DNA of 64,000 nt from Anaerolineae bacterium (GTDB lineage: Bacteria > Chloroflexota > Anaerolineae > UBA1429): positions 352,001 to 416,000 of the forward strand of contig OY776562.1 of assembly GCA_963675785.1 (NCBI GenBank), given 5' to 3'. The notes below the pieces were generated by a model that did no database searches, had not been told where the DNA came from, and saw nothing but the letters and a program-made list of their open reading frames with translations. The position numbers were made by a program, and so were the translations under genes. Shown here one piece after another: positions 112 through 11,193 of this stretch. Numbering within the stretch: the stretch's first letter is position 1; each line of letters begins with the position of its first letter.

Positions 112-1161
112 TTAGGGAATGACTCTGACGCCGCACCCTTTGTAAGCGCTACCTACCACCCAGAAAGATTGTCCTTCTTCATCAAGCGCTTTTGCAAGCG
201 CATTGGCACGGTCAGGGGCTACAGCAATGAGCAAGCCTCCCGATGTTTCGGGTGTAAACAGCAGAGTGCGCATTTCCGCCGAGATGGATTCATCAAAAGT
301 GACATGTTTTGTGTAAAAGTTCTCATTGCGGCAGGCCCCGCCGGGGAAGAGCATGTCGTCTGCATACTGAATGGCCCCTGAAATGAAAGGTAGCTTGGAG
401 AACTCGAACTCCAAGCCGATATTGCCCTTTTCGGCCATCTCCCAGGAATGCCCCAGCAGGGCAAAGCCGGTGATATCGGTTACGGCGTGCACGCCAACTC
501 TACGAATGGCCTGAGCAGCTTGTTTGTTCAGGCGTTTCATGCTTTCGGTGGCTTCGGCAATGTGTTCTTCGGCGGCCAGCTGGGCTTTGGCAGCCGTGTT
601 GATAACACCCACGCCCAATGGTTTGGTGAGGAGAAGAATGTCGCCTGGTTTTGCGCCGCCCTTGGTAAATATCCTGTCGGGGTGAACTGTGCCCATCACT
701 GATAGGCCATACTTGGGCTCTTTATCGTCAACGGTGTGTCCGCCAGCAAGAACGCCACCTGCTTCACGTACCTTTTCCCCGCCGCCCCTGAGGATTTCCG
801 AGGCAACTTCTGTAGGCATATCTTTGGGGAAGCAGAACACGTTGAGCGCAAGCACGACCTCACCGCCCATTGCATAGATGTCACTTAGCGCATTGGCAGC
901 AGCGATCGCGCCATAGTCATAAGGGTCATCTACTATGGGTGTGAAAAAGTCCAGCGTTTGAACGATGGCCAGCTCGTCACTGATTTTGTAGACGGCAGCA
1001 TCATCCGACACACGCAGCCCAACCAACAGGTTGGGGTAGTCTTCAGCTTGGAAAAGAGCTTGCAAGGGACGCAGTACCTGCGCCAGGGTCTCAGGACCCG
1101 TCTTGGCCGCTCAACCTGCTGCAGTTGTCATGGCGGTAAGGCGAATTCGCTTATCATCCAT
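112..1161 (-). CDS. selD: Selenide,water dikinase (selenophosphate synthetase), selenocysteine-containing (Sec17)
   Basis: SelD motifs DDAAVY, QTLDFFTP, GGHT, DITGFAL. The frame extends past the ORF-track start through an in-frame TGA (1111-1113) to ATG 1161 with RBS GGGGGAG, giving MDDKRIRLTAMTTAAG-U-AAK, the canonical G-(C/U)-x-x-K active site. Confidence 0.95.
1082..1107 (-). promoter_or_regulatory. Bacterial SECIS element of selD
   Basis: Just 3' of the UGA: lower stem GCCA/UGGC, 5' bulge AGAC, upper stem GGGUC/GACCC, loop CUGA; the loop starts 16 nt after the UGA. Confidence 0.8.
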
Positions 1162-1201: not shown

Positions 1202-1423
1202 CTACAGATCGTGGATCCCCTCTATCTCTAGCTTTTGCTTGGTCAATTCTGCCAGCGCTCTCTCTTTATCATCCGTGGCAATGCTCACGCAAATGCCGCA
1301 TTCAGAGGAGAGTGTTCTGGGGACGGGTATCAAGCGACAAGGTATTCTTACTCGCGTGAGCAGATGTTCTGCCCGCACGGCATAATTCGTACCATATACC
1401 AAAATGACGGTCTGCTTGATCAT
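1202..1423 (-). CDS. DUF3343 family protein (putative Se/S carrier-like)
   Basis: 73 aa with LIPVPRTLSSECGI motif; overlaps the upstream stop (ATGA); a usual selD neighbour. Confidence 0.85.
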   Translation of the reverse strand: MIKQTVILVYGTNYAVRAEHLLTRVRIPCRLIPVPRTLSSECGICVSIATDDKERALAELTKQKLEIEGIHDL

Positions 1424-2580
1424 CGCCTAGAGGCCTCCTGGGCAAGCGACCGCACGGCGTTCAGTGTTTCCAATATCTCTTGCTCTGTGGTTAGGGCGCT
1501 CATGCCCAAGCGGACTGTGCCCTCTGGGAAAGTACCCATGGTGTGATGTGCTGCTGGAGAACAATGTAGCCCGACACGGCAGGCGATGCCAAATTCCGTA
1601 TCAAGGCGTAACCCCACCTCTGAACAGGGCATGTTAACGATGTTGAACGACACGGTTGCCGTTTGGCATGTTGCATCATGCGTGCCATAGACCTGAATAT
1701 ATGGCATATCGTACAGGCCTTGGATGAGCAGTTGTGTGAGCTGCATTTCGTGAGCACGGATACTATCGATTCCCCTATCAAGCAGCCAGTCGATCCCTGC
1801 TACAAGCCCGGCTAGCCCCACCACATTGAGCGTGCCACTCTCGTACTTGTCGGGGCAACGGGTGGGCTGGAATTCCTCTTCTGATCGACTTCCCGTGCCG
1901 CCGCGTTTGAGCGGCTCAAATTCATCAATGTCAACACGAGGGCCAATAACGAGACCGCCAGTGCCCATAGGTCCGCATAGGGCTTTGTGGCCGGTAAAGG
2001 CGAGCAAATCAATGCTGCTGGTTTGCATATCGATGGGAACGGAGCCAGCAGTTTGGGCTGTATCGACCACAAAAAGAGCCTGGGTGCTGCGCACGATTTG
2101 ACCGATTTCGTCGATAGGCTGAATGGTGCCCACCACATTCGAAGCGTGATTGACGATGACGAGACGGGTGTTGGAGCGAATAGCCTGGCGAATGGCTTCA
2201 GAGGCGACGAGGCCTTCTGGCGTGCAAGGAACGACGGTCAGCTCTATGCCCTGGCTTTCCACATAGCGCAAAGGCCGCATGACGGCATTATGCTCCATGC
2301 CTGTTGTAACAACGTGATCCCCAGGCTTGAGCAGACCATGGATAGTCAAGTTCAAGGCCTCGGTAATATTGGCTCCAAAAACCACGCGCATGGGATCTGG
2401 GGCTCCAAAAACCCTGGCAATGCTCTCCCGTGTGCGGTAAATGAGGCGCCCCGACTCAATGGCGTTGTGATGTGCAGCACGCCCTGGATTGGCCCCGACG
2501 TTCTTGATAAACTCGCACATTGCCTCAGCTACGCCGGGAGGCTTGGGCCACATGGTTGCCGCGTTATCCAAATAGATCAA
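1420..2580 (-). CDS. Class-V PLP aminotransferase, cysteine desulfurase / selenocysteine-lyase-like
   Basis: IYLDNAAT, NPGR, HASNV, DTAQTAG, FTGHK (PLP Lys), RVGLHC (catalytic Cys). Start placed at TTG 2580 behind RBS AGGAG, not at 2706. Confidence 0.9.
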   Translation of the reverse strand: MIYLDNAATMWPKPPGVAEAMCEFIKNVGANPGRAAHHNAIESGRLIYRTRESIARVFGAPDPMRVVFGANITEALNLTIHGLLKPGDHVVTTGMEHNAVMRPLRYVESQGIELTVVPCTPEGLVASEAIRQAIRSNTRLVIVNHASNVVGTIQPIDEIGQIVRSTQALFVVDTAQTAGSVPIDMQTSSIDLLAFTGHKALCGPMGTGGLVIGPRVDIDEFEPLKRGGTGSRSEEEFQPTRCPDKYESGTLNVVGLAGLVAGIDWLLDRGIDSIRAHEMQLTQLLIQGLYDMPYIQVYGTHDATCQTATVSFNIVNMPCSEVGLRLDTEFGIACRVGLHCSPAAHHTMGTFPEGTVRLGMSALTTEQEILETLNAVRSLAQEASRR

Positions 2581-2592
2581 GAAACTTCTCCT

Positions 2593-2646
2593 ATCGGGGC
2601 GAGCTCCTGGAGGAATTTTCCCCTCCTCCAGGAGCTCGCCCCCGAT
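2593..2646. repeat. GC-rich intercistronic inverted repeat (22-bp stem)
   Basis: ATCGGGGCGAGCTCCTGGAGGA - 9 nt - TCCTCCAGGAGCTCGCCCCCGAT (one bulged base); no U-tract. Confidence 0.85.
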
Positions 2647-2648
2647 CT

Positions 2649-2855
2649 CTACTTGCTGATAGTCAGTGCAAATCCATCGTTCTGTTCGATGGCAGAGACG
2701 ATGCAACCCTGTTTTTCAGCGATGCGGCGGACATTCTCTCGTGAAGTTACTGTATCGACGAGAACGACAAATGGAAACTCACCTTCATCAATCGCTTTGC
2801 GTGTAAGGATAACGGGTTGAGGGCAAGAGAGGCCCTGTGCATCTACCGTTTTCAT
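2649..2855 (-). CDS. TusA/SirA (YedF-like) sulfur/selenium carrier
   Basis: MKTVDAQGLSCPQPV, the TusA-family CPxP motif; ATG 2855 overlaps the yedE stop. Confidence 0.9.
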   Translation of the reverse strand: MKTVDAQGLSCPQPVILTRKAIDEGEFPFVVLVDTVTSRENVRRIAEKQGCIVSAIEQNDGFALTISK

Positions 2856-3982
2856 GCTTCTACCCTCCCGGGTTTTTCTCTCATTGTAAAACCAATAATC
2901 AGGCATATGGCAATGCCTACAAATACTGCGATCATGCCCCAAGTGGAGATGCCACCGACTTTGACTATGCCATCGACGACCGAGTCGGGCGAAGCAGCCA
3001 AGCTAAAGTTGTGCGCAAAAGCAGCGCCGGCGATCATTCCCAGTACAAAAGTAGCTGCATCGCTATCACCTTCACCCGAAAGGATGAGTTGCCGTCCTGG
3101 GCAACCGCCAGCCAGAGAAAATGCTAAACCAGCGAGTACCATGCCAGCAAAGTTCCAGAGCGTGTTGCTGTGAGCAATAGGCTGACCAGCAAAGCCGAGA
3201 TTGAACTGTCCGAGGATAAGGTTCATGAGGAACGCGACCACGACAAGGGATCCGAGACCACTGATAAGGTGCGTATCGCCCATGAGGATAACATCACGGA
3301 TGGATCCCATGGTGCAGAAACGGGTACGCTGGGCCAAAAAGCCAATGAGCAGACCAGCAGCAAGGGATATGGCGATAGGTGCGGCCATCGAGCCCGGCCC
3401 TGATTCGCTGGAAAAAATGGCACCGCCTTCGGAGAATTGCGGTTGCCAAATAGCCAGAATGAGCAGAAACACCATGATGGAAGGCATGATCCAGCCTACA
3501 GTGGCGCGTTGTGTATGCGCTCGCCCCAGAGTATAACCGTGCTTGAGGAACCACACGCCACCGGCAATGCCAACTGCTAGGCCGACAAGACCGACGATGG
3601 CGTTCATATCTCCGCCAGCCAGACGCAGCAGTGCTCGCCAGGGGCAGCCGAGAAAGACGAGGGCACCGATCATGGCCAGCATACCCAGGATAAAGCGGAT
3701 GATGGGGGCAGAACCACCGCGTGCTTTCCACTCTCTAAAGAGCAATGCGGCGATAACGGAGCCAAGAACAAAGCCCATAATCTCAGGGCGCAAGTATTGC
3801 ACAACACTGGCCCTGTGAAGTCCCAATGCTCCGGCGATATCGCGCTCAAAGCAAGCTACACAGATGCCCATATTGGGCGGATTGCCCCAGTACTGGAGTA
3901 GGGAAGCGAGAATGCCGATGACTGCACCGGCAACGATGATCCCCCATCGAGAGGCGAAAAAGCGAGTCAGTCGTTGGCGCAT
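2852..3982 (-). CDS. yedE: YedE/YeeE family putative selenium transporter
   Basis: Polytopic membrane protein with GNPPNMGICVACFERDIAG, FLGCP, RTRFCTMG and AGGCPGRQ motifs; RBS AGGAGGA. Confidence 0.9.
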   Translation of the reverse strand: MRQRLTRFFASRWGIIVAGAVIGILASLLQYWGNPPNMGICVACFERDIAGALGLHRASVVQYLRPEIMGFVLGSVIAALLFREWKARGGSAPIIRFILGMLAMIGALVFLGCPWRALLRLAGGDMNAIVGLVGLAVGIAGGVWFLKHGYTLGRAHTQRATVGWIMPSIMVFLLILAIWQPQFSEGGAIFSSESGPGSMAAPIAISLAAGLLIGFLAQRTRFCTMGSIRDVILMGDTHLISGLGSLVVVAFLMNLILGQFNLGFAGQPIAHSNTLWNFAGMVLAGLAFSLAGGCPGRQLILSGEGDSDAATFVLGMIAGAAFAHNFSLAASPDSVVDGIVKVGGISTWGMIAVFVGIAICLIIGFTMREKPGRVEA

Positions 3983-3986
3983 GGGT

Positions 3987-4041
3987 TCCTCCTGTGCATG
4001 TTGGGCTGCGCTGGAATGACAGCCCGTTGTGCACGAGGAGA
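3987..4041 (-). promoter_or_regulatory. Putative hairpin sequestering the yedE Shine-Dalgarno
   Basis: UCUCCU(C)GUGCA (4041-4030) pairs with UGCAC-AGGAGG (3998-3988); inner stem GGGCUG/CAGCCC (4025-4020 / 4008-4003). Confidence 0.65.
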
Positions 4042-4152
4042 CTATTTGAGCAGGGAAGGGTCATTCCAGAGGAGCCGTTTGATTTGGTGAGAGCAGAGAG
4101 TGCCGTCCGGCACCCGATTTTTCCGCTCTCAGATTCGATGTTGAATTGGCAT
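4042..4152 (-). CDS. Putative selenocysteine-containing leader peptide (36 aa, MPIQHRI-U-ERKNRVPDGTLCSHQIKRLLWNDPSLLK)
   Basis: RBS AGGAGGA (4164-4158), ATG 4152, in-frame TGA 4131-4129 followed by a SECIS-like hairpin, open to TAG 4044-4042, 59 nt before the yedE ATG. Confidence 0.65.
4088..4131 (-). promoter_or_regulatory. SECIS-like hairpin in the leader ORF
   Basis: Lower stem UGAGAGCGGA/UCUGCUCUCA, 5' bulge AAAAUC, upper stem GGGUGCC/GGCACUC, loop GGAC 20 nt after the UGA. Confidence 0.7.
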
Positions 4153-4204
4153 CACGATCCTCCTAGCGACATGTTGCCAGTATACTCCAAGTGTCAAGAG
4201 TCAT

Positions 4205-4249
4205 AAAGGAAAGAAGAGGGGGGGGCAAGCTTACGCTTGCCCCCCCCTC
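4205..4249 (-). terminator. Intrinsic terminator of giant surface protein A
   Basis: 15-bp G/C-rich stem with GUAA loop, then UUCUUUCCUUU on the minus strand. Confidence 0.85.
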
Positions 4250-6126
4250 GGTCATGCCAAGTTCTAGTAGTTACAAAAGATCAGGGGGAAAGCAATAGTC
4301 GTCGTCGGAGTTCGAAGGGGCTGGTAACTATAGTTACCAAAGGTAGCGCTGCCAGAATCACCATCCAGTAGCTCGACAGAGACAGAAGATTCAGTCGTGC
4401 AGGTCAGGCTACTAGGCGTGACCTCGACGATGCGATAGTTACCGGCACCCAGGCCAGCGATTCGCCAAGAGCCATCTGCGCCGGTCTTGGTGGTAGCCAC
4501 GAGATCTTCCTGGCCGGTTTCCGGATTAACAGCATAGACCTGGATTGTGAGGCCAGCGATACCGGCCTCATTCTGGTCCTGGGCACCGTTCTTGTTGCTA
4601 TCGTTAAAAGCCGTGCCCGAGAGAGAGCCAGGGAAAGAGCAGCCAAAGGAGACATCTGCGGCGATGCCGTCGGCGACAGAGATGTCCTGATAGAGGAGAT
4701 CACAGGTAACGCCGTCGGGGAAATCGGGCACGACGCGGTAGTCGCCGTCGGCCAGGCCGCCGAACTGATAGACACCGGCTGCGCTGGTGGTAGACGTGGT
4801 GATGAGCTCATCATCGCCAGTACCCAGGAGGCCATCAGAGCCAGGGCCATAGATACTGACAAGAATACCAGCCAGAGGAGTCTCGCCATAGTCAGGGAGA
4901 TCATCCTGATCGGCATCATCCCAGATAACGCCAGTGGTTTTGCAAGTCATGGTATCGCCAAAGTTAATGATACTGGGTGTTTTGGTGTTGACCGTAACCT
5001 CGACCTGGCCAGGAGTTGTGCTGACATGACCTTCAGGGTCGATCTCGACGAGAGCGAAACTGGCATAGCCCATGTTATCAAAGACATAGGTACCGAGTTC
5101 AAGCTGAGAGAAACTGTAGAAGCCGTCCTCGTCGGTAATACCTTCAACGAGAAGGAGATCAGCGTTGGGAGAGACGACCTCACTGCGGGCATAGACCTGG
5201 ATGAGGACACCGGCGATACCCTGTTCGGTAGCATCCTGGAGGCCATTGGCATTGGCGTCTTCAAAGACAGTACCAGCGATAGTACCGGTAGGCTGAGCGC
5301 CGACAGAGATAGAGCTGGCGCCGTCGCTACCGATATAGACATCGCGTGTGAGAGGCGATTCGCCGACATAGCCATCGGGATAGTCGATGATGATGCGATA
5401 GTAACCCTCGGGGAGATCACCGAGAGAGACATTGCCGTCCTCATCGGTGGTCAACTCGGTGATGAGGACATCGTCATCGGTACCGAGGATGCCGTCGGGA
5501 CCAGCGGAGATAACGGTGACGGAGGCTCCCGGGAGAGGCTCGTTGTCATCATTCGGCTTATCGCCGAGTTGAGGATCGATACAGGTATGGACATAGAGGG
5601 TGCCTGTTTTGAGATAGCCAAAGGCAGGCTGGGTCATAGATTGACCTTCGCTGATAGAGATTTGGCGTTGAGCGACACCGCTCATAGCGTAGCCATCGAC
5701 ATTGGCAGCGCAGACCATATAGCTACCGTCGGCAAGGCCGGTAAAGACATAGGCACCGTCGGCTTCGGTAGAGCCTGAGGCAACGACGACATCGTCAGCA
5801 GTACCAAAGCGGGCGTCGGCACCGGGTCTGAGGAGAGAAAGGGACACATCGGCCAGTGGGGAGCCGCTTTCCGCGTCCTGCCCCACATAGGCCTTGACGC
5901 GGAGCTGAGCGATGGACTGACAGCCAAAGTTCTTGGAGAGCACGTTACCGGCGATGACATTGACGGTAGCCGGGTTGGCGGTGGTCACGGTACTGCCAGT
6001 GGGAGCAGTGACCTGGATAAGATATGTGCCAGCGAGCAGATCTTCAAAGGCATAGGAGCCGTCGGCTGCAGTCGTGAGAGAACTCAAAGTAGCATCATCG
6101 GCTGTGTAGGCGATGCCGTCGGAGCC
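4230..6126. repeat. Direct repeat copy 1 (~1.9 kb, near-identical to 11571-13467)
   Basis: Matches at offset 7341 with only scattered substitutions (e.g. near 4311, 4350, 4634, 6108); includes the terminator. Confidence 0.95.
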
Positions 6127-9100
6127 TAAAGAGACTAGCTTGACCGAAGCATTTGCTACAGCAGCTTCATCAGTCCCCAACTTGCCGTTTCCATTAGTGT
6201 CTGTATAGATCACACCACTGATATCGCCTGTGGTGGGAGCCGGCGTAGGAGTTGCTTGAGGCGGGACGGTGGGCACCGGTGTAACAGCAGGATTGGGCGT
6301 AGGTGTAGTAACGGCACGATTACTCTCGATAGAGAGGGTAACGGTACAAGTATCGGTGAGGCCGCCCAGATCGACGACGGTATAGGTAAAGGCGTCGTGA
6401 GTAGTGACGGCATAGCTAGCCGAGTAGGCGATGGTGTCGTCGTCTAGGAGAGAGACAGAGCCATAAGTAGAGTCGCCGACGGAAGCGATGGCGAGGTCAC
6501 CGACTTCGATATCTGTATCATTGGCGAGAACGTCGATGATGACCTGTTCACCAGCGCGCACCTCAGCTTCATCCTCCACGGCATCAGGTGAGTCGTTTAC
6601 GGCTATAACGGTCATGCTGATGGTATGGCTGTCACTCAAAGGAGTTCCCGTGCCAGAGTGCCCCAGATCATTTACATCAAGACTGATTGATTCAGGACCC
6701 TCATAGTTGAGATTTCCTTGATAGTAAAGTCCGCTATCGAGCAGAGCGTTGAGGTCTTGGAGACTATCTGTAATGGTTAGTGTACTAGCAGCGTCGATAT
6801 CATTTGTCCCAAGTGTTCCATGTTCTACACTGGCTACCAGTTCAAGATTCTCAGAACCCGAATCGACATCGCTCAATTGAATAGCCAAGGCATCCACGAG
6901 ATTGAGCGTTTCATCTTCATTGACTGAAGCATTTGCAGGAGCCGTGACGACAGGGCTATCGTTGATGGGTGTGATGCTGATGTTGATTGTGCCTGTTACG
7001 ACACCACCCCTACCGTCTGAGACGGTATACACCAATGCATCAGTCCCCGAATCGCCAGGAACAGGATAGTTTGTTGCAGGCGTGTAGACGACTGCTGTTT
7101 TGTCATTCGATACAGCGGCTACGCCATGTTGTGCTGTTGTGACAGAGATAATGATCAGTACTTCATCATCATCTACGTCGCTGTCATTGGACAGAGCAGA
7201 AAATGTATTGCCCACTGAGTCTTCATCAACGGTATAGTCGTCGTCGACCACAACCGGATCATCGTTCACTTCAGTGATAGTAATAGTCAGACTATATGGT
7301 GAAGCAGAGTCTCTACCGCCATTGCTGGTACCACCATCGTCCTTTAGAACGACAGCAACGCGTGTCGTACCATAGGCATTGAGTGCAGGTGTAAAGGTCA
7401 GTGTGCCATCGGCCGATACGGAGGGTTGTTCAGAGAACAGGGCAGTGTCTTCGGCAGTGGCTTCAAAGTGCAGCTCTTGATCGCTTTCATCACTGGGGCC
7501 GGTGGAGAGGTTCGTAGCCCAATTGGCGACGGTTTGAGCGGAAGCATCCTCCAACAGAGTCTGGTCTTCACCGGCATCAAAAGAAGGAGTATCGTTCACG
7601 GGTGTGATATTGATGGTAAAGGTAATAGCATCTGACTCGTCATCACCACCATTAGCAGTGCCGCCGTTATCAGAAAGTATCACTGTAACAGTAGCCGTGC
7701 CATTCATATTGGCTGCTGGCCGATAGGTGAGAGCACCAGTTGATGAGATGGCTGGCTGAGAGCTAAAGAGCGTCGAGTTATTGCTAGAGACCTCAAAGGA
7801 GACGCTTTGGCCACTCTCATCACTGGGACCGGCGGAGAGGTTAGTAGCCCAATTGGCGACGGTTTGAGCGGAAACATCCTCCAACACGGTCTGGTTTGCG
7901 CCAGGGGTGAAGGACGGCGTATCGTTCACGGGTGTGACATTGATGGTAAAGGTAATAGCATCTGTCTCGTCATCACCACCGTTGGCAGTGCCACCGTTGT
8001 CAGAGAGAGTAACAGTAACAGTGGCCGTCCCATTCATGTTAGCAGCAGGCGTAAAGGTGAGCGTGCCGTTGGAAGAAATAGCAGGCTGAGAGCTAAAGAG
8101 TGCCGAGTTATTGCTAGAGACCTCAAAGGAGACGCTTTGGTCACTCTCATCACTGGGGCCGGTGGAGAGGTTCGTAGCCCAATTGGCGACGGTTTGAGCG
8201 GAAGCATCCTCCAACACGGTCTGGTTTGCACCAAGGGTGAAAGAAGGCGTATCGTTCACGGCTGTGACATTGATGGTAAAGGTAATAGCATCTGCCTCGT
8301 CATCACCACCGTTGGCGGTGCCACCGTTGTCAGAGAGAGTAACAGTAACAGTGGCCGTGCCATTCATATTGGCTGCTGGCCGATAGGTGAGCGCACCAGT
8401 TGATGAGATGGCTGGCTGGACGCTAAAGAGTGTCGTGTTGTCATTGGATACGACAAAGGAAACCGTTTGGCCGCTCTCGTCACTGGGGCCTTTGGAGATA
8501 TCTGTGGCCCAGGTAACAGATTGTGAGACTGCATCTTCTAGCACCGTCTGGTTAGCGCCTGGCGTGAAAGAGGGCTCGTCGTTGACTGCGGTTACAATAA
8601 TAGACCATGTTGCTGGTGCACTCCACAATTCGCCATCATAGAGCGAAAAGGTAAAGGAGGTAGAGCCATTCCAGTCTACATCAGGAGCCAGTCGGACATC
8701 GTCAAAATCGGTGTAGGCATAAGCTTGGGATTCATCAACAGCCTCATCATTTCCAAACAAAAGACGGGCGTTAGCGGGCAAGGTGTCGATACGTACAGAG
8801 ACGAGGGCATCTCCGCTATCTGGATCGGAAAAGACGCCGGTGAAATCGCTGCCAGCCAGACCGAAGAAGGTATCCTCCAGTGTTGTTTTTGAAATGCCGG
8901 ACGCGGAGGGTTGCTCGTTGGCATCTATGATGCTGATTGTGAACGTGTGATCATAGTAGAGCCCGCCAGCATCGGTGGAACGCACAGTCACCGAGTAGCT
9001 GTTGTCAGCTTCGTAGTTGAATACAGTTGCTGCTTTTAACGAGTTTCCAGAGATGCTAAAGGCAGAGGTGTCGCCGCCAACTATTGAGTAAGTGAAGCTA

Positions 9101-11193
9101 TCACTGCTGTCTGGGTCAGTACTGCTCAAAGTACCAATTGTAATGTCCAAAGTCTGGTTTTCAACTATAGAGCTGTTTGTAATGCTCAAAGCAGTAGGTG
9201 CTTCGTTGACGTTGGTGACACTGATGGTGAACGCACGGTCATAGTAAAGACCGCCAACATCGGTGGAACGCACGGTCACCAAATAGCTGTTGTCGGTCTC
9301 GTAATTGAACACGGCCGCTGTCTTGAGCGAGCTGCCCGAAATGCTAAAGGCAGAAGTATCTCCACCAACTATTGAGTAAGTGAAGCTATCTCCAGAATCT
9401 GGATCAGTGGTTGACAGCGTGCCAACTGTAGTGCCAGATGATACATTTTCTGCTACGGCATTGTTGGACAAAGCGATCGCCGTGGGTGTCTCGTTGGCAT
9501 TTGTGATACTGATAGTAAAGGCACGGTCATAGTAGAGGCCGGCCGCGTCGGTGGCACGAATAGTGATGGAATAGCTGTTATCAGACTCATAATTGAAGGA
9601 AGTTTCCGTGAGTAGCGTACTCCCCGAGATACTAAAAGCCGAGGTATCGCCACTGACGAGCAAATAGCTAATGGTATCATCGCTATCAGGATCGACGCTG
9701 CTTAGCGTGCCTACTGGCGTTCCAGAAGTCTGATTTTCAGCTAAAGATGTATTTGAAAGAGTAACGGTTGTGGGTGCTTCGTTTAAATCGGTAACGCTGA
9801 TAACATATGTTCGATCAAAATAGAGACCGCCGGCATCGGTAGAACGCACGGTGACCGAGTAGCTGTTATCAGCCTCATAGTTTAATACAGATGAAGTGCG
9901 TAACGTGCTACCAGAGATGTTAAAGTAACCAGTATCTCCACTAACGAGTGAATAGGTAAATGTATCGCTACTATCCGGGTCGGTTGTGGAGAGCGTGCCT
10001 ACTGTGGTGTTTGCAGAGGCGTTTTCTGCTACAGAGTTGTTGGACAGGCTCATCGCCGTTGGCGACTCGTTTACATTTAGGATGGGCACAGTGAGCCATT
10101 CACTGTAGGTATTGGCGTAGCTGTCGGTGGCTTGAATCTGTACCTGATAAGAAGAGATTTGTTCATAGTCAAAGCTTGAACCTAAAGCCGTCACGAGAGA
10201 ATAGGTACCTTCGGATTCGGTGATGGCAAACTGACCGTCAGCATCATTGAGCAGGATAAAGGTATGTGTATCGTTGAGGTCAGCATCTGTGGCGGCCAAG
10301 GGGCCGATTTCTGTGCCAGGAGCGCTATTTTCAGGCAGGCCTACTTGCCAATCAGAGACTTGGCCATCATGCACGAGCCAAAGCCAGACGCCCGCATGAT
10401 CGATATTGGTAGCATCCGAGGCGGTATCGAGAGCCAACATGGCGGCGTTGTCGCCAGATTGAGGCAACTCGGAATAGTTGGTCTGGTCGCCAGCGGTCCA
10501 ACCTGCGGTTGCCGTAGTCGATGTGTCAGTGAGAATCCATTCAATAGCTTCATAGCGGATTTCGATGGCAAAGTCACCACCGCCGATATCCCAGAGGCGA
10601 ATCTGGAAGGCGTTGGACTTGTCATTGTGTGAAGAGTAATAGCCGGTGTCATCAAAAGTGATGGTGACACAGTCATTGACGGTATCGATGTCGTACCAGA
10701 TTTGGTTACTGCCTTGCGAGTTACCCGTTGTATCGTAGGTAATGCTGGAAGCACGAGTATCGACATCGCCAAAGTAAGCGGCGATCATGGGAACGGTGGA
10801 ACCGGCGATACCCCAGGGACTGTAAGAGCTAGAGCCTTCACCAAAAGTGACATAGCCGTTACGTCCAATAAAGAACTCAGTAGCGGCGTCGTAAGGGGTC
10901 TCTCTAAAGTAGTTGAGGCCATTCTCAAAAACGGCAGAGATATCGACTTGCTGATAGCCATCGTCTCCTTTGGAGACACTGCCCTCACCAAAGCCATAGG
11001 TACCACCGAGACCATTGACGAGATAGTGACCGGATTCGATGTATAGACTACCGTTGCCGCTTGTGGAGAGGCCGAACTTGATTTTAGTAGGTGCTACGCC
11101 TTCGGCGGATACGGTTGGCACAAGTCCTAGCAAGGCCGTGGCTAGAAGCAAGAATGCTGCAAGAATGAGAGTAAGTCGATGTGGCGATTGCAT
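4264..11193 (-). CDS. Giant secreted/surface protein A (2309 aa): signal peptide, nidogen-like (NIDO) domain, cadherin repeats, Ig-like repeats, P/T linker, SdrD-B-like repeats, C-terminal FPLIF motif
   Basis: Signal peptide ending VSA; NIDO-like IAAYFGDVDTR and NAFQIRL; cadherin motifs DxD, FNYE, NEAPT; ISGxVFxDxNxNG and GxDGxxGTxDD repeats; RBS GGAGG. Confidence 0.85.
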   Translation of the reverse strand: MQSPHRLTLILAAFLLLATALLGLVPTVSAEGVAPTKIKFGLSTSGNGSLYIESGHYLVNGLGGTYGFGEGSVSKGDDGYQQVDISAVFENGLNYFRETPYDAATEFFIGRNGYVTFGEGSSSYSPWGIAGSTVPMIAAYFGDVDTRASSITYDTTGNSQGSNQIWYDIDTVNDCVTITFDDTGYYSSHNDKSNAFQIRLWDIGGGDFAIEIRYEAIEWILTDTSTTATAGWTAGDQTNYSELPQSGDNAAMLALDTASDATNIDHAGVWLWLVHDGQVSDWQVGLPENSAPGTEIGPLAATDADLNDTHTFILLNDADGQFAITESEGTYSLVTALGSSFDYEQISSYQVQIQATDSYANTYSEWLTVPILNVNESPTAMSLSNNSVAENASANTTVGTLSTTDPDSSDTFTYSLVSGDTGYFNISGSTLRTSSVLNYEADNSYSVTVRSTDAGGLYFDRTYVISVTDLNEAPTTVTLSNTSLAENQTSGTPVGTLSSVDPDSDDTISYLLVSGDTSAFSISGSTLLTETSFNYESDNSYSITIRATDAAGLYYDRAFTISITNANETPTAIALSNNAVAENVSSGTTVGTLSTTDPDSGDSFTYSIVGGDTSAFSISGSSLKTAAVFNYETDNSYLVTVRSTDVGGLYYDRAFTISVTNVNEAPTALSITNSSIVENQTLDITIGTLSSTDPDSSDSFTYSIVGGDTSAFSISGNSLKAATVFNYEADNSYSVTVRSTDAGGLYYDHTFTISIIDANEQPSASGISKTTLEDTFFGLAGSDFTGVFSDPDSGDALVSVRIDTLPANARLLFGNDEAVDESQAYAYTDFDDVRLAPDVDWNGSTSFTFSLYDGELWSAPATWSIIVTAVNDEPSFTPGANQTVLEDAVSQSVTWATDISKGPSDESGQTVSFVVSNDNTTLFSVQPAISSTGALTYRPAANMNGTATVTVTLSDNGGTANGGDDEADAITFTINVTAVNDTPSFTLGANQTVLEDASAQTVANWATNLSTGPSDESDQSVSFEVSSNNSALFSSQPAISSNGTLTFTPAANMNGTATVTVTLSDNGGTANGGDDETDAITFTINVTPVNDTPSFTPGANQTVLEDVSAQTVANWATNLSAGPSDESGQSVSFEVSSNNSTLFSSQPAISSTGALTYRPAANMNGTATVTVILSDNGGTANGGDDESDAITFTINITPVNDTPSFDAGEDQTLLEDASAQTVANWATNLSTGPSDESDQELHFEATAEDTALFSEQPSVSADGTLTFTPALNAYGTTRVAVVLKDDGGTSNGGRDSASPYSLTITITEVNDDPVVVDDDYTVDEDSVGNTFSALSNDSDVDDDEVLIIISVTTAQHGVAAVSNDKTAVVYTPATNYPVPGDSGTDALVYTVSDGRGGVVTGTINISITPINDSPVVTAPANASVNEDETLNLVDALAIQLSDVDSGSENLELVASVEHGTLGTNDIDAASTLTITDSLQDLNALLDSGLYYQGNLNYEGPESISLDVNDLGHSGTGTPLSDSHTISMTVIAVNDSPDAVEDEAEVRAGEQVIIDVLANDTDIEVGDLAIASVGDSTYGSVSLLDDDTIAYSASYAVTTHDAFTYTVVDLGGLTDTCTVTLSIESNRAVTTPTPNPAVTPVPTVPPQATPTPAPTTGDISGVIYTDTNGNGKLGTDEAAVANASVKLVSLGSDGIAYTADDATLSSLTTAADGSYAFEDLLAGTYLIQVTAPTGSTVTTANPATVNVIAGNVLSKNFGCQSIAQLRVKAYVGQDAESGSPLADVSLSLLRPGADARFGTADDVVVASGSTEADGAYVFTGLADGSYMVCAANVDGYAMSGVAQRQISISEGQSMTQPAFGYLKTGTLYVHTCIDPQLGDKPNDDNEPLPGASVTVISAGPDGILGTDDDVLITELTTDEDGNVSLGDLPEGYYRIIIDYPDGYVGESPLTRDVYIGSDGASSISVGAQPTGTIAGTVFEDANANGLQDATEQGIAGVLIQVYARSEVVSPNADLLLVEGITDEDGFYSFSQLELGTYVFDNMGYASFALVEIDPEGHVSTTPGQVEVTVNTKTPSIINFGDTMTCKTTGVIWDDADQDDLPDYGETPLAGILVSIYGPGSDGLLGTGDDELITTSTTSAAGVYQFGGLADGDYRVVPDFPDGVTCDLLYQDISVADGIAADVSFGCSFPGSLSGTAFNDSNKNGAQDQNEAGIAGLTIQVYAVNPETGQEDLVATTKTGADGSWRIAGLGAGNYRIVEVTPSSLTCTTESSVSVELLDGDSGSATFGNYSYQPLRTPTTTIAFPLIFCNY
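7270..8586 (-). repeat. Four tandem ~330-bp coding repeats (110-aa Ig-like units)
   Basis: VND codons recur at about 7261, 7591, 7921, 8251 and 8578; unit PSFTxGANQTVLED...DNGGTANGGDD. Confidence 0.9.
8923..10074 (-). repeat. Four tandem 288-bp coding repeats (96-aa cadherin units)
   Basis: NExP codons recur at about 8914, 9202, 9490, 9778 and 10066. Confidence 0.88.

Follow-up and report, generated by a model that had tools for sequence, protein, structure and literature searches.

A candidate selenocysteine-sensing leader-peptide attenuator upstream of the yedE selenium operon in an Anaerolineae bacterium

Translational attenuators such as those of ermC and cat sequester the Shine-Dalgarno (SD) sequence of the controlled gene and sense a leader ribosome stalled by an antibiotic, and the short polycysteine open reading frames (ORFs) of mycobacteria (bioRxiv 10.1101/834739) reportedly respond to cysteine, with Cys-tRNA sensed at sense codons. 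An element resembling a selenocysteine insertion sequence (SECIS) in the 5' untranslated region (UTR) of Escherichia coli selAB, reportedly described by Thanbichler and Bock in 2002, is said to be untranslated and to act by SelB binding alone. Bacterial control of selenium uptake and selenocysteine (Sec) synthesis is little understood; the literature consulted mentions autoregulation by SelB in E. coli, a factor of the LysR type and the coupling found within fdhF(Sec). In Treponema primitia (PMC3892789), failed decoding of the Sec UGA of fdhF(Sec) alters downstream transcription, which the authors of that report liken to trp attenuation; in Methanococcus maripaludis (PMC11097638), yedE mRNA rises by 5.28 log2 on selenium starvation. 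The present work deals with a leader of about 120 nucleotides (nt) located directly upstream of a selenium operon that begins with yedE, in a stretch of 64,000 nt from an Anaerolineae bacterium (GenBank assembly GCA_963675785.1, contig OY776562.1, positions 352,001 to 416,000), referred to here as the window. An earlier reading of the letters (the original prediction) had proposed a Sec-sensing attenuator at this place. Conservation, covariation, a spacing between UGA and hairpin loop like that of fdhF, an open frame after the UGA and, in relatives, a terminator/antiterminator pair support that reading, and the element is probably a ribosome-mediated leader-peptide attenuator in which a Sec UGA serves as control codon and Sec-tRNA(Sec) is the molecule sensed.

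The features of the leader are given below; all its letters and coordinates refer to the minus strand of the window.

4216-4249, minus strand: intrinsic terminator of the upstream gene for a protein of 2309 amino acids (15-base-pair stem and T-rich tail; sub-threshold Rfam hairpin match)
4157-4163, minus strand: SD sequence of the leader ORF, AGGAGGA, as read from the sequence
4132-4152, minus strand: leader ORF ahead of the Sec codon, MPIQHRI (ATG 4152-4150; seven codons including the ATG)
4129-4131, minus strand: in-frame UGA, proposed Sec control codon (T, G and A are invariant columns of the family alignment A1)
4088-4131 (44 nt), minus strand: SECIS-type hairpin (10-base-pair lower stem, 6-nt 5' bulge, 7-base-pair upper stem)
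4042-4128, minus strand: stretch of the leader ORF that read-through would reach, with 28 codons and TAG 4044-4042

The terminator at 4249-4216 sets the 5' limit of the yedE leader region. The SD sequence and the ATG at 4152 were as originally described, with an in-frame GTG at 4155 as an alternative start; the seven codons that had been placed after the ATG include the ATG itself. The UGA at 4131-4129 and the 28 codons to the TAG were confirmed with an identical translation. The hairpin layout that had been described (10-base-pair lower stem, bulge, upper stem and loop GGAC) was recovered as both the minimum free energy (MFE) and the centroid structure of 4131-4088, with -26.2 kcal/mol, a z score of -4.93 and none of 200 shuffles reaching the same value; the 51 nt from the UGA onward gave -26.0 kcal/mol and z -6.10. 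The lower stem begins with the UGA itself, and in the upper stem 4115-4109 pairs with 4104-4098, leaving GGAC (4108-4105) as the loop.

Comparison with other genomes was left by the original prediction as a way to check it, and SD sequence, start codon, UGA and hairpin were indeed found kept upstream of yedE or of selenium operons. YedE was present in 25 of the 41 genomes of the relatives' sample (own genome counted), which gave 24 relatives' loci, 23 of them usable as L031 had no upstream DNA. An SD sequence, a start codon, 5-12 codons, a UGA and the hairpin stood ahead of yedE in 20 of these 23. A wider scan covered 80 yedE loci, the bulk of them in records that bear the label Anaerolineae or Chloroflexota, and a covariance model (R1) built from 60 elements (alignment A1) matched at the expected place and strand in 57 of them (41 seeds, 4 seed duplicates and 12 new loci); variant forms were recognised by eye or with a relaxed detector at L052, L070, L098, L109, L114, L119 and L121. 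Over the own genome, only the element described here was a convincing R1 match (E value 1.7e-5). The next two matches, L123 and L124 (E values 0.1 and 0.39), had broken stems and were rejected.

Over an even sample of the phylum, R1 matched 2 of 151 genomes, own genome included, which indicated that the element is restricted to some lineages; the second of these matches (L125) lay antisense inside an ORF of 454 amino acids and was rejected as a probable false match. Outside the phylum, R1 gave a single match per genome in five genomes with other lineage labels, and matches came from 4 of 8 additional genomes belonging to one phylum-level group and from 3 of 39 belonging to another class. Among these other-lineage loci, yedE lay downstream of the element in L131, L133-L137 and L140. 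In L132 and L138 the leader, the SECIS and a terminator stood directly before a TIGR01977 SclA-like desulfurase and not before yedE, and the element thus appears tied to the selenium operon rather than to yedE alone.

Covariation, which had likewise been left to comparison, was found throughout the upper stem of the hairpin, with compensatory changes in 7 of 7 pairs of the family alignment, and the lower stem was variable in the family. A tetraloop starting with GG or AG occurred at +21 from the U of the UGA in 49 of 59 elements; the commonest loops among the 60 were GGUU (16), GGUC (13) and AGUU (7). The proven SECIS of E. coli fdhF, taken from the public record, folds with a loop GGUC at +21. 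From this we infer that the hairpin 4131-4088 is a bacterial SECIS, for which SelB binding and Sec insertion are predicted. A search of Rfam 15 at E values up to 10 gave no match within 4042-4164 and a scan of 3900-4320 gave no sigma-70 promoter consensus, as might be expected of a chance hairpin or of a stabilising 5'-UTR structure of the common kind that happens to contain a mini-ORF. The z scores of -4.9 to -6.1, the conservation, the covariation and the statistics of frame and spacing contradict such an origin, to which we give practically no credence; on the comparative evidence chance is excluded, mainly through the conservation in other genomes.

Reading frame was assessed on elements defined by TGA and hairpin only, with the start codon ignored (n = 52). 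An SD-led start lay in frame with the UGA, 3-20 codons ahead of it, in 47 of the 52, as compared with 1 and 0 of the 52 in the two shifted frames. The codons just before the UGA were conserved at the amino acid level among the 60 family members: Arg at position -3 in 44, Arg at position -2 in 34 through five synonymous codons (CGC, CGT, CGA, CGG and AGA), and at position -1 Thr in 38, through four codons, and Ile in a further 12. Translation of the leader is thus indicated by the SD sequence, the frame and this synonymous-codon pattern. Leaders of the low-GC subfamily carry hydrophobic peptides in place of ...HRRT, and the base following the UGA was C in just 2 of the 60 elements of A1; both the scarcity of C and the different peptide of the subfamily may reflect tuning of termination by release factor RF2 at the control codon.

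After the UGA, 61 of 64 distinct elements had 17 or more codons without a stop in this frame (mode 25 codons, range 17-44), and earlier stops were met in frames +1 and +2 in 22 and 21 of the 64, respectively. The end of the extended ORF was conserved in position, at a modal 25 codons. These data bear on the proposal that the hairpin is an SelB-binding operator, as in the selAB 5' UTR, and the UGA an ordinary stop that is never decoded. Bound SelB, carrying Sec-tRNA or not, would then alter the folding of the RNA or initiation. An operator would account for an apical loop that matches SelB-binding SECIS loops, it has the reported precedent in E. coli, and TGA is common as a stop in GC-rich genomes. 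It would leave unexplained an invariant UGA at the exact decoding distance, a post-UGA frame that is open unlike the other frames, an extended-ORF end that is kept in place and an antiterminator strand lying within the read-through frame (see below), and we regard it as unlikely.

Codon-position entropy was 0.65, 0.80 and 1.00 before the UGA, a weak periodicity (18 ungapped sequences), and 1.02, 1.05 and 1.12 after it, that is, no periodicity, and post-UGA peptides were unrelated between loci. A genuine small selenoprotein gene of about 36 codons, whose product has a function of its own, would also show an SD sequence, a start, an in-frame UGA, a SECIS and an open frame, all of which are there. 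The lack of codon periodicity after the UGA, peptides that differ wholly between relatives, an ORF length varying over 17-44 codons and a conservation that tracks RNA helices make it very improbable. The absence of codon-level conservation after the UGA argues against a functional selenoprotein, in agreement with the original view of the peptide as a sensor; a frame kept open while its product is unconserved is what a sensor ORF would be expected to look like.

Under the attenuator reading, a ribosome would start at ATG 4152 and arrive after seven codons at the UGA (4131-4129), where the hairpin 4131-4088, acting as a SECIS, would recruit SelB-GTP-Sec-tRNA(Sec). With Sec-tRNA(Sec) available, Sec would be inserted and the ribosome would run 28 codons to the TAG (4044-4042) across a strand designated region 2; with Sec-tRNA(Sec) absent, RF2 would terminate translation at the UGA and region 2 (4076-4060) would stay free to pair with the apex (4020-4004) of a hairpin in which the ribosome-binding site of yedE is hidden. 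Where the leader ribosome stands would thus determine which of two folds the RNA adopts, and with it the expression of yedE, tusA, the desulfurase, DUF3343 and selD. The parts of this switch in the window are the following.

4060-4076 (perfect core 4069-4060), minus strand: region 2, anti-sequester strand inside the read-through ORF, pairing with 4020-4004
4030-4041, minus strand: anti-SD strand, directly after the TAG, pairing with 3998-3987 in the MFE and centroid folds
4004-4020, minus strand: region 3, apex of the SD-sequestering hairpin and partner of region 2, from the fold
3987-3998, minus strand: yedE SD region, sequestered in the most stable fold (unpaired probability of the SD core 0.00-0.04)

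The helix between regions 2 and 3 comprises about 15 base pairs and is the MFE structure at transcript lengths of 122-140 nt from the UGA, before the SD is made. In the full leader, the fold containing this helix is 2.9 kcal/mol costlier than the MFE (-57.5 vs. -60.4 kcal/mol), and in the modelling the folds of the own copy differed when ribosome footprints were blocked. No hairpin followed by a T-run was present between 4042 and 3982 in the window; the SD was sequestered in other terminator-less loci too.

In the relatives, a GC-rich hairpin with a T-run stood 100-140 nt past the UGA in 50 of the 64 distinct loci, with 30-216 nt separating it from the first gene. Locus L036, whose terminator-like hairpin is 4 nt from the start codon, was dropped and the remaining 49 were aligned (A2). 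The terminator itself was 91.8% paired in A2 and showed covariation. An antiterminator 5' strand lies about 42-62 nt past the UGA, within the read-through frame, and is complementary to the 5' arm and loop of the terminator; the antiterminator helix was 85.7% paired, and each of its 10 pairs (10 of 10) showed changes at both positions. None of 500 shuffles attained the scores observed for the whole tested structure, which is somewhat favoured by the derivation of its string from one member (L044), and pairing fell to 30-52% when the partners were slid by 1-3 columns. In all subfamilies this strand lies inside the ORF, ahead of its stop codon. In the high-GC subfamily there is in addition a third hairpin (P3), 72-76% paired with compensatory changes. 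As the two alternative folds are an antiterminator and an intrinsic terminator in the majority of relatives, control would be transcriptional in these, and the own copy would act on translation.

Negative feedback of the trp type, in which a free region 2 (no Sec-tRNA) would mean ON and read-through OFF, is the sign of control towards which we lean slightly. It is favoured by the location of the antiterminator strand in the ORF in all subfamilies, by the low-GC subfamily, where in the models the antiterminator is lost in favour of the terminator once the ORF stop is occupied by a ribosome, by the own region 2:3 helix, which forms first when region 2 is free, and by the induction of yedE under selenium starvation in M. 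maripaludis. The same sensor with the opposite sign is less probable. Read-through under plentiful Sec-tRNA(Sec) would then turn the operon ON in a positive, selenium-inducible loop, the ribosome that has passed the Sec codon melting, at the ORF stop, the anti-SD strand 4041-4030 in the window or the 3' strand of P3 in relatives; without selenium the operon would be off, the Sec-dependent selD included.

Several results speak for this opposite sign. In the own copy, as in L032, L035, L036 and L039, the stop codon of the ORF falls within the anti-SD strand or next to it, so that termination at this place would open the SD of yedE. P3 is conserved, overlaps and sequesters the 3' part of the antiterminator strand, and holds the ORF stop in its 3' strand. 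Blocking of the stop region flipped the fold from terminator to antiterminator in 8 loci (L026, L044, L045, L053, L058, L068, L106 and L108). The selD of the operon is itself a selenoprotein, and selenium switches transcription of fdhF(Sec) on through translational coupling in T. primitia (PMC3892789). Against it, formation of the antiterminator would have to span a bound ribosome; the own region 2, left free when there is no read-through, is the first to pair, which leaves no obvious OFF state; the same block flipped the fold from antiterminator to terminator in 8 other loci (L041, L059, L071, L077, L081, L093, L111 and L117); and the sole precedent found here for yedE expression, that of M. 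maripaludis, is induction by selenium starvation. Of the 49 truncated folds, 37 contained at least six antiterminator pairs with no ribosome present and 36 formed the antiterminator with one placed at the stop; equilibrium folding with a blocked footprint favours neither sign of control.

Whatever its sign, several observations weigh against a Sec-sensing attenuator. Within 350-400 nt, no leader was found at L027, L030 and L040 (three of the 23 usable loci), nor at about 16 of the 80 yedE loci of the wider scan. The own copy departs from the family mode in its loop, at +23 and not +21, in its peptide end, HRI and not RRT, and in having neither a terminator nor a P3 hairpin. In L023, L052 and L098 (3 of the 64 distinct elements) a second UGA follows one codon on, so the frame is closed there unless both UGAs are decoded. 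selB was found in 37 of the 41 relatives, so that the co-occurrence of leader and selB has no discriminating power, and it was not found in two leader-bearing genomes, G002 (about 90% complete) and G017 (about 96% complete, about 820 contigs). Restriction of the element to genomes with selA, selB and selC, as originally expected, is for this reason uninformative; the expectation that the own genome carries these genes was borne out. Finally, Sec insertion is slow in E. coli, and sensing at the level of transcription would consequently need pausing of RNA polymerase.

Leaders with two UGAs were observed in L021/L105, L023/L114, L098 and L052 (TGA-NNN-TGA), and L141 has adjacent UGAs. Such pairs may act as tandem Sec control codons, comparable to the repeated Trp or His codons in the leaders of amino-acid operons, or else mark inactivated copies. 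L141 is a second R1 match in genome G216, a leader copy followed by a yedE-like frame that has an early stop and no tblastn match, and it looks like a decaying duplicate.

The genes downstream of the leader in the window are listed below.

2852-3982, minus strand: yedE, putative selenium transporter and first controlled gene (TIGR04112 seleno_YedE, 492.8 bits, cut-off 200; Pfam Sulf_transp)
2649-2942, minus strand: TusA/SirA-like sulfurtransferase, YedF-type (PF01206, 52 bits)
1420-2706, minus strand: cysteine desulfurase family protein similar to the selenocysteine lyase SclA (TIGR01977, 458.3 bits, cut-off 377; PF00266)
1202-1423, minus strand: DUF3343, putative Se/S carrier protein (PF11823, 68.3 bits)
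112-1161, minus strand: selD, in which codon 17 is the Sec codon (UGA 1113-1111), followed by a SECIS belonging to the gene (profile match, hairpin fold)

The function of the operon fits a Sec-sensing leader, given the family assignments of yedE, the desulfurase and selD. The likeness in layout between the selD SECIS and the leader hairpin, pointed out earlier, held with corrections: the Sec codon is at 1113-1111, the upper stem has 5 base pairs, and the 4-nt loop has its G at +21. The genome encodes selA (556.5 bits), selB (319.4 bits vs. a cut-off of 242.25), selC (tRNA-Sec) and selD. A selenocysteine MsrA is encoded outside the window, a little way upstream (G000:C1, about 348661-349449, minus strand; L130:162-947), its PMSR domain (138.7 bits) spanning the GUFWG motif and its SECIS loop, GGUU, lying at +22. 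A scan of the genome for genes with an in-frame UGA was noisy, with 529 candidates and 144 after a hairpin filter, among which msrA was confirmed; the genes recovered by searches of the genome for the Fdh-alpha and FlpD families have no TGA in frame.

A perfect 19-base-pair inverted repeat with a 9-nt loop (2596-2642, both strands), matched only by spurious miRNA-like Rfam entries, separates the TusA-like gene from the region of the desulfurase gene that is conserved. It could be an intercistronic hairpin of processing, stability or control. Its position suggests a desulfurase start downstream of the TTG at 2706, and the true start of the gene may lie downstream of 2596. On the other side of the leader, the giant ORF of 2309 amino acids (4264-11193, minus strand) contains SdrD_B, SpaA and CarboxypepD_reg repeats in its scanned part, and it likely encodes a surface adhesin-like protein on account of these repeats.

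As for precedent, the earlier suspicion that no Sec-codon attenuator had been described is consistent with a full-text literature search, most subscription journals being outside its scope, that returned neither a Sec-codon leader peptide nor a SECIS-linked terminator/antiterminator. A 2026 review of prokaryotic selenoproteomes mentions no leader, attenuation or riboswitch, the 2015 yedE paper does not mention a leader, and a paper on SelB and tRNA-Sec held nothing relevant. It is likely that recoding itself serves here as the signal: a leader peptide (...H-R-R-T) would bring the ribosome to a Sec UGA, where SelB-Sec-tRNA(Sec) would compete with RF2 and the outcome would gate a terminator/antiterminator or SD-masking switch of selenium import and selenophosphate synthesis. 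This would be the first leader attenuator for the 21st amino acid, present in at least three bacterial lineages and with tandem-UGA variants. If true, charged Sec-tRNA(Sec) would be read out directly and without a protein, and a recoded stop codon would join the control codons of ribosome-mediated attenuation. The element would also offer a compact selenium-responsive genetic switch, as well as an in vivo assay for the competition of SelB and RF2, in which the conserved nascent peptide HRRT could serve as a handle. As regards annotation, seemingly empty leaders of selenium operons would hold a translated Sec mini-ORF missed by gene callers.

With the attenuators of trp, his, leu, thr and pheA the element shares a short SD-led ORF, with the control codon inside, ahead of an operon that supplies the sensed aminoacyl-tRNA and, in the relatives, an exclusive terminator/antiterminator choice set by ribosome position, the ORF overlapping the antiterminator 5' strand. 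It differs from them in that the control codon is a recoded stop, in need of a cis hairpin and a dedicated elongation factor, in that competition with a release factor takes the place of simple stalling, in that there is usually one control codon (two in few variants), and in that the window copy lacks a terminator and masks the SD. The translational attenuators of ermC and cat and the mycobacterial short ORFs reportedly resemble it in a leader ribosome that remodels an SD-hiding hairpin or in a short ORF that reports one amino acid, but do so without SECIS-dependent recoding. The E. coli selAB element is said to be likewise an SelB-type hairpin regulating Sec-pathway genes, from which the present one is set apart by its in-frame SD and start (47/52), its invariant UGA at decoding distance and its open frame. 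In common with bacterial SECIS elements (E. coli fdhF, own selD and msrA), the hairpin stands 3' of an in-frame UGA with a GG or AG loop at +21 to +23 and an open frame; here, however, it belongs to a mini-ORF that is about 36 codons long and whose protein sequence is not conserved after the UGA, and is part of a switch upstream of other genes. In T. primitia fdhF(Sec), UGA and SECIS are inside the selenoprotein gene, with no leader ORF and no terminator/antiterminator pair. As a candidate new form of a known class of attenuation, the element is well supported by the comparison of genomes.

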